Shown here: positions 27,614 through 31,523 of the stretch, piece after piece
Layout: every line of letters starts with the position of its first letter
Position numbering within the stretch: position 1 is the first letter of the stretch
NCBI RefSeq assembly: GCF_029227855.1
Contig: NZ_CP074356.1
DNA: 64,000 nucleotides
Reading direction: 5' to 3' (one strand)
DNA from: Escherichia coli
GTDB taxonomy: Bacteria; Pseudomonadota; Gammaproteobacteria; Enterobacterales; Enterobacteriaceae
Position numbers and translations under genes: made by a program
The notes under the pieces: model-generated
Seen by the model: only the letters and a program-made list of their open reading frames with translations
Database searches by the model: none
What the model was told of the DNA's origin: nothing

Positions 27614-29590
27614 ATGTCTGACGACATGTCTATGGGTTTGCCTTCGTCAGCGGGCGAACACGGTGTACTACGCTCCATGCAGGAGGTTGCAATGAGCTCC
27701 CAGGAAGCCAGCAAGATGCTGCGTACTTACAATATTGCCTGGTGGGGCAATAACTACTATGACGTTAACGAGCTGGGCCACATTAGCGTGTGCCCGGACC
27801 CGGACGTCCCGGAAGCTCGCGTCGATCTCGCGCAGTTAGTGAAAACTCGTGAAGCACAGGGCCAGCGTCTGCCTGCACTGTTCTGTTTCCCACAGATCCT
27901 GCAGCACCGTTTGCGTTCTATTAACGCCGCGTTCAAACGTGCGCGGGAATCCTACGGCTATAACGGCGATTACTTCCTCGTTTATCCGATCAAAGTTAAC
28001 CAGCACCGCCGCGTGATTGAGTCCCTGATTCATTCGGGCGAACCGCTGGGCCTGGAAGCCGGTTCCAAAGCGGAGTTGATGGCGGTGCTGGCACATGCTG
28101 GCATGACCCGTAGCGTCATCGTCTGCAACGGTTATAAGGACCGCGAATATATCCGCCTGGCATTAATTGGCGAGAAGATGGGCCACAAGGTCTATCTGGT
28201 CATTGAGAAGATGTCAGAAATTGCCATTGTGCTGGATGAAGCAGAACGTCTGAATGTCGTTCCTCGTCTGGGCGTGCGTGCACGTCTGGCTTCGCAGGGC
28301 TCGGGTAAATGGCAGTCCTCCGGCGGGGAAAAATCGAAGTTCGGCCTGGCGGCGACTCAGGTACTGCAACTGGTTGAAACCCTGCGTGAAGCCGGGCGTC
28401 TCGACAGCCTGCAACTACTGCACTTCCACCTCGGTTCGCAGATGGCGAATATTCGCGATATCGCGACAGGCGTTCGTGAATCCGCGCGTTTCTATGTTGA
28501 GCTGCACAAGCTGGGCGTCAATATTCAGTGCTTCGACGTCGGCGGCGGTCTGGGCGTGGACTATGAAGGCACCCGTTCGCAGTCCGACTGTTCGGTGAAC
28601 TACGGCCTCAATGAATACGCCAACAACATCATCTGGGCGATTGGTGATGCGTGTGAAGAAAATGGTCTGCCGCATCCGACGGTAATTACCGAATCGGGTC
28701 GTGCGGTGACTGCGCATCACACCGTGCTGGTGTCGAATATCATCGGCGTGGAACGTAACGAATACACGGTGCCGACCGCGCCTGCAGAAGACGCACCGCG
28801 CGCCCTGCAAAGCATGTGGGAAACCTGGCAGGAGATGCACGAACCGGGAACTCGCCGTTCTCTGCGTGAATGGTTACACGACAGCCAGATGGATCTGCAC
28901 GACATTCATATCGGCTACTCTTCCGGCACCTTTAGCCTGCAAGAACGTGCATGGGCAGAACAACTCTATCTGAGCATGTGCCATGAAGTGCAGAAGCAAC
29001 TGGATCCGCAAAACCGTGCGCATCGTCCGATTATCGACGAACTGCAGGAACGTATGGCGGACAAAATGTACGTCAACTTCTCGCTGTTCCAGTCAATGCC
29101 GGACGCATGGGGGATCGACCAGTTGTTCCCGGTTCTGCCGCTGGAAGGGTTGGATCAAGTGCCAGAGCGCCGCGCTGTGCTGCTGGATATTACCTGTGAT
29201 TCTGACGGTGCTATTGATCACTACATCGATGGTGATGGTATTGCCACGACAATGCCAATGCCGGAGTACGATCCAGAGAATCCGCCGATGCTCGGTTTCT
29301 TCATGGTCGGCGCATATCAGGAGATCCTTGGCAACATGCACAACCTGTTCGGTGATACCGAAGCGGTTGACGTGTTCGTCTTCCCTGACGGCAGCGTAGA
29401 AGTAGAACTGTCTGACGAAGGCGATACCGTGGCGGACATGCTGCAATATGTACAGCTCGATCCGAAAACGTTGTTAACCCAGTTCCGTGATCAAGTGAAG
29501 AAAACCGATCTTGATGCTGAACTGCAACAACAGTTCCTGGAAGAGTTCGAGGCAGGTTTGTACGGTTATACCTATCTTGAAGATGAATAA
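27614..29590 (+). CDS. speA: Biosynthetic arginine decarboxylase (658 aa)
   Basis: ORF 27602..29590; protein from [56 protein letters not shown]; start trimmed. Confidence 0.94.
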
Positions 29591-29606
29591 TTAAGATTAT
29601 TCCGCT

Positions 29607-29648
29607 GGCGGGTCGATTTATTTACGTAAATCGGCCCGCTTTCTTTTT
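29607..29648 (+). terminator. Rho-independent terminator after speA
   Basis: gcgggtcgattta-tttacg-taaatcggcccgc followed by tttcttttt. Confidence 0.65.
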
Positions 29649-29735
29649 ATATATTCTTAAAAATAATCTAGCTGCTTTTCTTATTAAATAATCTCCCTAC
29701 AATCGCTGCATTAATTAAATGCAGAGGGAACGGTT

Positions 29736-30467
29736 ATGAAAAAATGGAAAGTACGTAGCGCGTTGATAGCATTAGCCGTGCTGCTGGCCGGTTGTTCCAG
29801 TAATGCGCAGTATAATAGCAGTGCATCAGGCAATGTCGGCACCGCCTGGGGTGGGGATGTACACTCATCGGTTCAGGGCGTATCTGCTGAACGAGTCTGG
29901 CGCGATCCGGCAGAGATGATCGTTATTAGTTATTCGACTACTGTTCCTTCGGGCTACGACCGCGTTTATAGCATTCGTATTAACGAACTTGAATATGCTA
30001 TTCGCGATGGTAATTTTAATTCTCTACCTATTACGCGGGTTTATGATTCGTCAAATAATGAACCACGCTATATTGTCCATGCCAGAGTAGGAATGAATTA
30101 TCAATTATATGTCCGCAATTACAGTCGTAACACCAACTACGAGATCGTTGCTACGGTTGATGGCCTGGATGTGCTGAACGGCAAACAAGGTTCGCTGAAT
30201 AACAACGGCTATATTGTGAATGCCGGAGATTCGTTAGCGATTAAAGGATTCCGCAAAGATAAACATACCGAAGCGGCTTTTCAGTTCGCCAACGTTGCTG
30301 ATTCCTACGCAGCCAATTCGGCGCAAGGCGATGTGCGTAATACCGGGGTAATCGGCTTTGCCGCCTTTGAATTACAAGGCTCGGCGCAAAACGCGATGCC
30401 GCCGTGCTCTGGACAAGCCTTTCCGGCAGATAACAATGGCTATGCGCCGCCACCGTGTCGGAAATAG
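29736..30467 (+). CDS. Uncharacterised lipoprotein (243 aa), not recognised as a K-12 gene
   Basis: Signal peptide with lipobox MKKWKVRSALIALAVLLAG-C-SSNA; Ser/Asn/Tyr/Gly-rich mature part; good RBS (gaggga) 7 nt upstream; AT-rich codon usage; own upstream AT-rich promoter region and downstream terminator. Confidence 0.75.
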   Translation: MKKWKVRSALIALAVLLAGCSSNAQYNSSASGNVGTAWGGDVHSSVQGVSAERVWRDPAEMIVISYSTTVPSGYDRVYSIRINELEYAIRDGNFNSLPITRVYDSSNNEPRYIVHARVGMNYQLYVRNYSRNTNYEIVATVDGLDVLNGKQGSLNNNGYIVNAGDSLAIKGFRKDKHTEAAFQFANVADSYAANSAQGDVRNTGVIGFAAFELQGSAQNAMPPCSGQAFPADNNGYAPPPCRK

Positions 30468-30533
30468 CAACCTCGCTTGATGCCTCGTCCATTTAAGGCG
30501 ATAATTAGCACAAACTTGTGTTTCGCAAATCCA

Positions 30534-30575
30534 ACCCTTCCTCGTCGGGCCTAACGACGCGGAAGGGTTTTTTTA
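30534..30575 (+). terminator. Rho-independent terminator after the lipoprotein gene, upstream of speB
   Basis: cccttcctcgtcgggcctaacgacgcggaaggg followed by tttttttat. Confidence 0.7.
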
Positions 30576-30602
30576 TATCGACTTTGTAATAGGAGTCCAT
30601 CC

Positions 30603-31523
30603 ATGAGCACCTTAGGTCATCAATACGATAACTCACTGGTTTCCAACGCCTTTGGTTTTTTACGCCTGCCGATGAACTTCCAGCCATATGACAGCGATGC
30701 TGACTGGGTGATTACTGGCGTGCCGTTCGATATGGCCACTTCTGGTCGTGCGGGTGGACGCCACGGTCCGGCTGCTATCCGTCAGGTTTCGACGAATCTG
30801 GCCTGGGAACACAACCGCTTCCCGTGGAATTTCGACATGCGTGAGCGCCTGAACGTGGTGGACTGCGGCGATCTGGTATATGCCTTCGGCGATGCCCGTG
30901 AGATGAGCGAGAAGCTGCAGGCGCACGCCGAGAAGCTGCTGGCTGCCGGTAAGCGTATGCTCTCCTTCGGTGGTGACCACTTTGTTACGCTGCCGCTGCT
31001 GCGTGCTCATGCGAAGCATTTCGGCAAAATGGCGCTGGTACACTTTGACGCCCACACCGACACCTATGCGAACGGTTGTGAATTTGACCACGGCACCATG
31101 TTCTATACCGCGCCGAAAGAAGGTCTGATCGACCCGAATCATTCCGTGCAGATTGGTATTCGTACCGAGTTTGATAAAGACAACGGTTTTACCGTGCTGG
31201 ACGCCTGCCAGGTGAACGATCGCAGCGTGGATGACGTTATCGCTCAGGTGAAACAGATTGTAGGTGATATGCCGGTTTACCTGACTTTTGATATCGACTG
31301 TCTGGATCCTGCTTTTGCACCAGGCACCGGTACCCCGGTAATTGGCGGCCTGACCTCCGATCGCGCTATTAAACTGGTACGCGGCCTGAAAGATCTCAAC
31401 ATCGTTGGGATGGACGTAGTGGAAGTGGCTCCGGCATACGATCAGTCGGAAATCACCGCTCTGGCTGCGGCGACGCTGGCGCTGGAGATGCTGTATATTC
31501 AGGCGGCGAAAAAGGGCGAGTAA
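30603..31523 (+). CDS. speB: Agmatinase (306 aa)
   Basis: [56 protein letters not shown]... Confidence 0.94.

Follow-up and report, generated by a model that had tools for sequence, protein, structure and literature searches.

A predicted outer-membrane lipoprotein gene between speA and speB, probably ancestral in Enterobacteriaceae and lost from Escherichia coli K-12

In Escherichia coli K-12, a short spacer (137 bp in MG1655, with no gene in it) separates speA from speB. In the 64,000-nt stretch of E. coli DNA analyzed here (the window), the spacer from the speA stop codon (29590) to the speB ATG (30603) is 1012 bp long and holds an open reading frame (ORF) of 243 aa that begins with ATG at 29736 and ends at 30467 in the list of open reading frames. 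Was this gene inserted between two polyamine genes or was it lost from K-12, and what would its product do? A preliminary description of the window had taken it for an orphan lipoprotein gene, apparently inserted between speA and speB after horizontal acquisition. All of the descriptive statements made there, including the gap of about 1 kb with its ORF and the short K-12 spacer, were correct, but the interpretation as an inserted orphan is unsupported. The gene order is metK (−), speA (+), the 243-aa ORF (+), speB (+), and loiP (−); all features described below are on the + strand. The left neighbor, speA (27614–29590, biosynthetic arginine decarboxylase), was recognized as an ORF with 97 to 100% identity to annotated speA at two loci, and the right neighbor is speB (30603–31523, agmatinase). 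Near the ORF lie only speA, speB, loiP, and tkt, all of them core genes, and its closest known counterparts are 97 to 100% identical, equal in length, and in the same position. The spacer at 29591 to 30602 served as the reference region.

The arrangement of other genomes reveals that the gene is not peculiar to this strain. It lies between speA and speB in Citrobacter freundii, Citrobacter gillenii, Citrobacter portucalensis, and a further Citrobacter sp., in Klebsiella (including Klebsiella spallanzanii), Kluyvera georgiana, Intestinirhabdus alba, and Phytobacter ursingii, as well as in Kosakonia, Entomohabitans, an Enterobacter sp., E. whittamii, and two cryptic Escherichia lineages. In addition, a contig of Escherichia albertii starts within the gene and continues into speB, and an Escherichia fergusonii copy is present in the protein cluster. 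In Salmonella, the gene is directly 3′ of speA, and a 7.5-kb sugar-metabolism island precedes speB. Overall, the slot is shared by at least 10 genera of Enterobacteriaceae and by every other Escherichia lineage sampled. Because the same gene follows speA in the outgroup genera and in the other Escherichia, the K-12 state is a derived loss, and the insertion proposed in the preliminary description does not hold.

The sequence just 3′ of speA supports the same polarity. A terminator-like hairpin with a T-rich tail, detected by its fold energy and covariation, occupies 29607 to 29650; its 15-bp stem (hairpin at 29607–29640) is followed by TTCTTTTTAT and has a free energy (dG) of −23.4 kcal/mol with a z score of −5.0. 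At least 10 genera, represented by 14 sequences, retain this hairpin, and 8 of 14 pairs show compensatory changes; the K-12-type allele lacks it. Since it is conserved and co-varies across genera, the long layout is ancestral for the family. We conclude that this is probably a vertically inherited, ancestral outer-membrane lipoprotein gene of Enterobacteriaceae that was lost by K-12 and about one-third of E. coli, and we hold the part of this explanation that concerns identity and history to be very likely correct.

To define the alleles within E. coli, 29591 to 30602 was compared with 5426 complete E. coli genomes, and the K-12-type junction was used in a reciprocal search. The whole region was found at 95 to 100% identity in 3550 genomes (65%; the long allele), and genomes without the long allele matched the last 77 bp only. 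The K-12-type junction was complete in 1863 genomes (34%; the short allele), nearly all of them 100% identical, and this short allele is exactly the 137-bp spacer of MG1655. Alignment to K-12 and other E. coli, which the preliminary description had put forward as a check, thus bore out the absence from K-12 and went against an insertion, the gene being carried by nearly two-thirds of the species. In the allele alignment, an 885-bp segment (29591–30475) is swapped in the K-12-type allele for 11 bp (GTCCTGTGTTA) that are unrelated to the long allele; the ORF with 8 bp past its stop codon is missing there, as are the upstream region and the speA terminator. No direct or inverted repeats were found at the boundaries of this segment. 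Direct repeats were considered as a deletion mechanism for the K-12 allele and rejected, as the repeats found lie off the boundaries. Two-thirds of E. coli, plus Salmonella, Klebsiella, and Citrobacter, would therefore encode a predicted outer-membrane lipoprotein that is missing from the model strain K-12, and because K-12 is without the gene, the lipoprotein escaped the systematic K-12 studies of lipoproteins and the envelope.

The composition of the gene had been read in the preliminary description as consistent with horizontal acquisition. Its codon usage is indeed more AT-rich than that of its neighbors: the ORF has a GC content of 0.484 and a GC content at third codon positions (GC3) of 0.459 versus 0.62 in both speA and speB, and the 145 bp upstream (29591–29735) have a GC content of only 0.345, in keeping with the AT-rich upstream region noted there. 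However, the orthologues of Salmonella, Citrobacter, and Klebsiella are equally poor, with GC3 values of 0.49 to 0.50 versus 0.57 to 0.74 in the flanks, and 0.65 to 0.74 in their own speA and speB. Low GC3 goes with the gene itself in all genera compared and is not a foreign mark in this strain; a K-12-absent gene with low GC3 need not be acquired, a lesson for annotation. Low GC3 together with high synonymous divergence is usual for weakly expressed enterobacterial genes. The ratio of nonsynonymous to synonymous substitution rates (dN/dS) is 0.07 to 0.08 versus Salmonella and Klebsiella, where dS is saturated (≥2.5), and 0.04 to 0.17 within Escherichia, where all six copies compared are full length and free of internal stops. 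Judged by these comparisons, this is a genuine gene of long standing that evolves under purifying selection.

We call the product a lipoprotein from a pattern rule together with the conservation of the cysteine across the family. A type II signal peptide (residues 1–19) and the presumably lipidated Cys20 (codon at 29793–29795) are encoded by 29736 to 29795. The precursor begins with MKKWKVRSALIALAVLLAG, followed by this cysteine: a basic n-region leads into a hydrophobic core and the lipobox Leu-Ala-Gly-Cys, and Ser occupies position +2. It matches the pattern [LVI][ASTVI][GAS]-C for substrates of signal peptidase II. As the preliminary description had observed, the LAGC lipobox is of textbook form, and Cys20 is shared by all 44 homologues in the alignment. 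The strict lipobox rule is passed by at least 225 of 276 full-length family members, and most of the others have a lipobox by eye. None of the 225 lipobox-passing members has Asp at position +2, the residue whose absence marks lipoproteins for the outer membrane in the Lol system. The predicted product accordingly fits the sequence definition of a bacterial outer-membrane lipoprotein. From established lipoprotein biology, the precursor would be exported by Sec, receive diacylglycerol on Cys20 from Lgt, be cleaved after Gly19 by LspA, be acylated at its new N terminus by Lnt, and be transferred to the outer membrane via the Lol system; the last step is predicted because the +2 residue is Ser and not Asp.

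The preliminary description expected a mature domain rich in Ser, Asn, Tyr, and Gly and probably rich in beta structure, and suggested structure prediction as a check. The four residues make up 35.4% of the mature protein, and an AlphaFold2 model built with a 44-sequence alignment gave a confident all-beta fold (mean predicted local distance difference test score [pLDDT] of 83.1, predicted template modeling score [pTM] of 0.79), in which the signal helix and a disordered stretch precede the all-beta domain, and the tail contains one short strand. Neither sequence profiles nor the model found a match for the domain in the PDB. In this model, the mature protein would consist of a flexible tether of about 14 residues, a beta-sandwich of about 180 residues, and the tail. 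The tether (residues 21–34, 29796–29837) is assigned from pLDDT values below 50 at residues 17 to 30, and family members differ widely in the stretch between the Cys and the first conserved motif, which spans 9 to 271 aa, with a median of 24. The predicted beta-sandwich (residues 35–215, 29838–30380) has 10-residue block means of 85 to 97 over residues 31 to 210 and carries the conserved motifs GTxWGE, YEIVATVDGLDVLNGKPGS, GFRK, AAFxF, YAAN, and GVIGxAxFE. Invariant or nearly invariant are Trp38, Arg53, Tyr66, Tyr122, Asn128, Glu136, Asp142, Asp145, Tyr159, Arg173, Tyr191, and several glycines. The C-terminal tail (30381–30464), defined by the homologue alignment, contains an AFP...YAPPP motif together with Cys224 (30405–30407) and Cys241 (30456–30458). 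Among 113 homologues, both cysteines are present in 59, neither in 51, and a mixed state in 3; this co-occurrence suggests a disulfide and hence an oxidizing compartment, and a Cys224–Cys241 bond probably pins the tail in enterobacteria. In four family members (P0267, P0269, P0270, and P0290), an LGTxYGE module, which is N-terminal in E. coli, follows the core domain and precedes the AFP...YAPPP tail; the rearranged module order resembles a circular permutation.

A profile search of 1.84 billion representative sequences shows how far the family extends. At E ≤ 1e-3 it comprises 4103 clusters, and at E ≤ 1e-10 there are 3193, so that the label of orphan has to be dropped. Homologues of the ORF reach an E value of 1e-155, and the main protein cluster has 4753 member sequences of 243 aa. 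Within Enterobacteriaceae, the homologues are 57 to 74% identical, and identities of 35 to 45% were found in Providencia, Gilliamella, Neisseria, Kingella, Variovorax, Comamonas, Acidovorax, Paracoccus, Inquilinus, and Ralstonia. The AlphaFold Protein Structure Database (AFDB) adds members from Pseudomonas, Acinetobacter, Moraxella, Halomonas, Proteus, Myxococcota, and Verrucomicrobia, and the family thus reaches from Gamma-, Beta-, and Alphaproteobacteria to Myxococcota and Verrucomicrobia. The preliminary description did not recognize the protein family, and the database searches agree: in Pfam, the query was unmatched even at E ≤ 10, and 52 diverse members were unmatched at E ≤ 0.001; NCBIfam gave nothing but signal-peptide noise, PADLOC gave no match, and PHROGs gave matches at E ≥ 0.02 only. 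With the PDB included, the lipoprotein appears to stand outside every described protein or structure family tried. The E. coli protein would be a neglected member of a large family of envelope proteins that has neither a Pfam or NCBIfam model nor a solved relative. The size of the family, the purifying selection, and the confident fold without a solved relative make it a reasonable target for envelope biology and structural genomics.

Gene neighborhood was also considered as a guide to function and rejected, as the neighbors are unrelated outside Enterobacteriaceae and Comamonadaceae: they are metJ and an outer-membrane protein gene in Providencia, thrS and recO in Gilliamella, and hydrogenase genes in Enterobacillus. 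In Variovorax, Comamonas, Acidovorax, Xenophilus, and Diaphorobacter, the homologue is always part of the his operon, where it sits between hisD and hisC; in Comamonadaceae, the genes there are tightly spaced. In Variovorax, it is followed by a gene for a 115-aa secreted two-cysteine protein whose stop codon overlaps the hisC start (loci L009–L011, 6001–7187); this protein had no family match in PADLOC or PHROGs, and its place is taken by other ORFs in Comamonas and Acidovorax.

The conserved residues give some indication of what the protein could do. As they include invariant aromatic, acidic, and basic side chains without a recognizable catalytic set, we read them as pointing to binding and not to catalysis, and a flexibly tethered beta-sandwich would present a conserved aromatic and charged surface to a ligand. 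The product could be held at the outer membrane by its lipid and bind some envelope component in the periplasm, which may be a protein or else a glycan, for example peptidoglycan; given the model, the chances of such a binding role seem evenly balanced. As a working analogy, LpoB and LpoA share the lipobox, a residue other than Asp at +2, a disordered linker of variable length to a folded domain, and a non-essential character; however, they have no sequence or fold similarity to the speA-speB lipoprotein, and the likeness is one of architecture only. Further systems for comparison are MATH/TRAF-like and other peptide- or glycan-binding beta-sandwiches, such as the SPOP MATH domain, the USP7 TRAF-like domain, and PCuAC.

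A different function is suggested by the location, namely that the lipoprotein is tied to a polyamine or basic-amino-acid pathway, in which it could partner SpeA at the envelope or bind agmatine, putrescine, or arginine in the periplasm. The position between speA and speB is held throughout Enterobacteriaceae, the hisD-hisC position in Comamonadaceae lies in a second basic-amino-acid pathway, and the invariant acidic residues Glu136, Asp142, and Asp145 could bind amines. SpeA is, moreover, labeled periplasmic in an O157 proteome table, and an envelope-associated SpeA was reportedly described by Buch and Boyle in 1985. Nevertheless, a strong, conserved terminator lies between speA and the lipoprotein gene, K-12 and 1863 other genomes make putrescine without it, and in Salmonella the gene stays by speA though speB is 7.5 kb away. 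Linkage to spe or his genes is lacking in Providencia, Gilliamella, Neisseria, Enterobacillus, Paracoccus, and others, and the his operons of Betaproteobacteria often carry embedded foreign ORFs. We therefore regard a polyamine link as unlikely. Slightly less likely still is the more specific idea that the repeated embedding in basic-amino-acid and polyamine clusters denotes sensing, binding, or channeling of periplasmic amines such as agmatine, for instance as a partner of SpeA.

Several observations weigh against an ancestral gene that was simply lost from some strains and is functional in the rest. First, the roughly 50 bp of the short allele that correspond to 30476 to 30525 (locus L001, 2952–3000) can be aligned to the long allele with an identity of only 19/31 and 20/29. 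Compared with the E. coli long allele, other genera have 22 to 24 of 31 identities in this patch and E. albertii has 30 of 31, so that the 50-bp promoter patch of the short allele diverges as between genera; the flanking speA and speB differ by 1.5 to 2.8% between genomes with the short and the long allele. A simple recent deletion, therefore, does not explain the short allele, and the divergent patch could be an old polymorphism, a short segment brought in from elsewhere, or the outcome of fast change once the deletion had occurred. Second, the gene is missing in 35% of E. coli and truncated by insertion sequence (IS) elements in some lineages, implying that its function is conditionally dispensable. 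Third, a sigma-70 scan gave no promoter upstream of the lipoprotein gene, and for this reason the promoter proposed below is an inference.

Loss and truncation on this scale could also mean that the ORF is in decay, a remnant without further importance in E. coli. Truncated products of 174 to 181 aa are known, one of them ending at an IS-like terminal repeat, AFDB holds Shigella fragments of the same 174 to 181 aa (including Shigella dysenteriae), and the product was not seen in the O157 proteome tables examined. Against decay stand the low dN/dS among intact Escherichia alleles, the six full-length Escherichia copies without internal stops, and the 4753 members of 243 aa in the main cluster, all of which make a remnant very unlikely. 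At a contig end (locus L092, 3501–3527), the truncated 174-aa product, which has 448 member sequences, terminates in GGAAGGTGCGAACAAGTCCCTGATA; we take this sequence to resemble an IS5-type terminal repeat.

Finally, the view that this lineage acquired the gene horizontally, as an islet placed between speA and speB, is effectively refuted: it could appeal to the absence from K-12, a GC3 of 0.46 versus 0.62 in the flanks, the AT-rich upstream region, and the terminators on both sides, but the gene is in the same slot at the outgroup and sister-lineage loci, its orthologues are just as GC3-poor, the post-speA terminator is itself ancestral and co-varying, 65% of E. coli genomes carry the gene, and no mobility signature (flanking repeats, integrase or transposase genes, IS elements, other mobility genes, or a tRNA site) was found beside the locus. 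Vertical inheritance followed by loss in K-12 also sets the locus apart from the O-island type of K-12 difference. Such differences are likewise small chromosomal segments between core genes, present in O157, B2, and other strains and not in K-12, and a comparison of O157 with K-12 by Perna et al. in 2001 is said to have catalogued them. They are mostly read as acquisitions, whereas for the speA-speB lipoprotein the outgroups make the K-12 state the derived one.

How the gene would be expressed was examined in its flanking sequences. The preliminary description had placed a terminator on either side of the ORF, and a terminator-like hairpin followed by a T-rich run is indeed present at 29607 to 29640 and at 30533 to 30569. 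At both sites (29607–29650 and 30533–30574), a GC-rich hairpin is followed directly by a U-tract, as in intrinsic terminators, and both stems are backed by covariation. The first, a predicted terminator, would insulate the lipoprotein gene from speA. Downstream of it, the AT-rich region at 29641 to 29735 would contain the gene's own promoter, with a −10-like TACAAT at 29698 to 29703, and the ribosome-binding site that had been noted earlier corresponds to a Shine-Dalgarno (SD)-like GAGGG at 29724 to 29728, 7 nt before the ATG. A hexamer of the type TAC(A/T)(A/C)T is kept in position, 29 to 39 nt 5′ of the ATG, in eight genera. Because a conserved terminator insulates it from speA and a conserved −10-like box lies upstream, we infer that the lipoprotein gene is a separate transcription unit between two polyamine genes. 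A 5′ hairpin at 29693 to 29729 (TCCCT...CTGCATT-AATTA-AATGCAG-AGGGA; dG −15.6, z score −3.9 in E. coli) that might sequester the SD sequence was not adopted, as it is significant in E. coli only, with no significant counterpart in Salmonella, Klebsiella, Citrobacter, or Enterobacter, and overlaps the presumed −10 box; given that its 5′ arm is the overlapping part, it may lie outside the mRNA.

The second hairpin had been assigned to the lipoprotein gene as its own terminator, an assignment that fails because the hairpin persists in K-12-type genomes without the gene and stays with speB in Salmonella. It is nearly invariant, is recognized by fold energy and conservation at 30533 to 30574, and ends 28 nt 5′ of the speB ATG; the hairpin proper (30533–30569), followed by T7, has a dG of −24.4 kcal/mol and a z score of −4.5. 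It is 100% identical in K-12-type genomes that lack the lipoprotein gene and near-invariant, loop included, in Escherichia, Citrobacter, Klebsiella, Kluyvera, Intestinirhabdus, Enterobacter, and Entomohabitans. In Salmonella, it lies beyond the 7.5-kb island, shortly before speB begins, and was not found after the lipoprotein gene. This island (locus L093, 6340–13925) encodes a GntR regulator, a mannitol dehydrogenase, a zinc alcohol dehydrogenase, an Ldh_2 protein, a DUF386 protein, and an alpha/beta hydrolase. Within the window, the hairpin occurs as a single copy, and an Rfam search over 29300 to 30900 gave nothing at E ≤ 1. A promoter scan and conservation place a promoter-like TTGATG-17 nt-GATAAT, assigned to speB, at 30477 to 30505; in the form TTGAxG-17-GATAAT, the hexamers and the 17-nt spacing are kept in the K-12-type allele and seven other genera, and the spacer sequence varies. 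The promoter and hairpin are thus kept as a unit in both E. coli alleles and at least eight genera.

On this comparative evidence, the hairpin appears to be part of the speB leader, yet it is also the first terminator-like element 3′ of the lipoprotein gene. Because only 25 to 45 nt lie between its U-tract and the speB start codon, speB transcripts must cross it, and the promoter-hairpin unit could be an attenuator or encode a small RNA. We know of no mechanism for the induction of speB by agmatine. The leader element may outweigh the lipoprotein for polyamine regulation and, of the two, may deserve more attention. A leader peptide within the hairpin (..LPRRA-stop, with two Arg codons) was considered and rejected, as an in-frame start codon is present in only 7 of 12 genera or alleles. 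In C. freundii and C. gillenii, the speB −10 box is separated from the hairpin by an insert of about 125 bp (locus L005, 5790–5925, and locus L016) that contains palindromes and may be a repetitive extragenic element.

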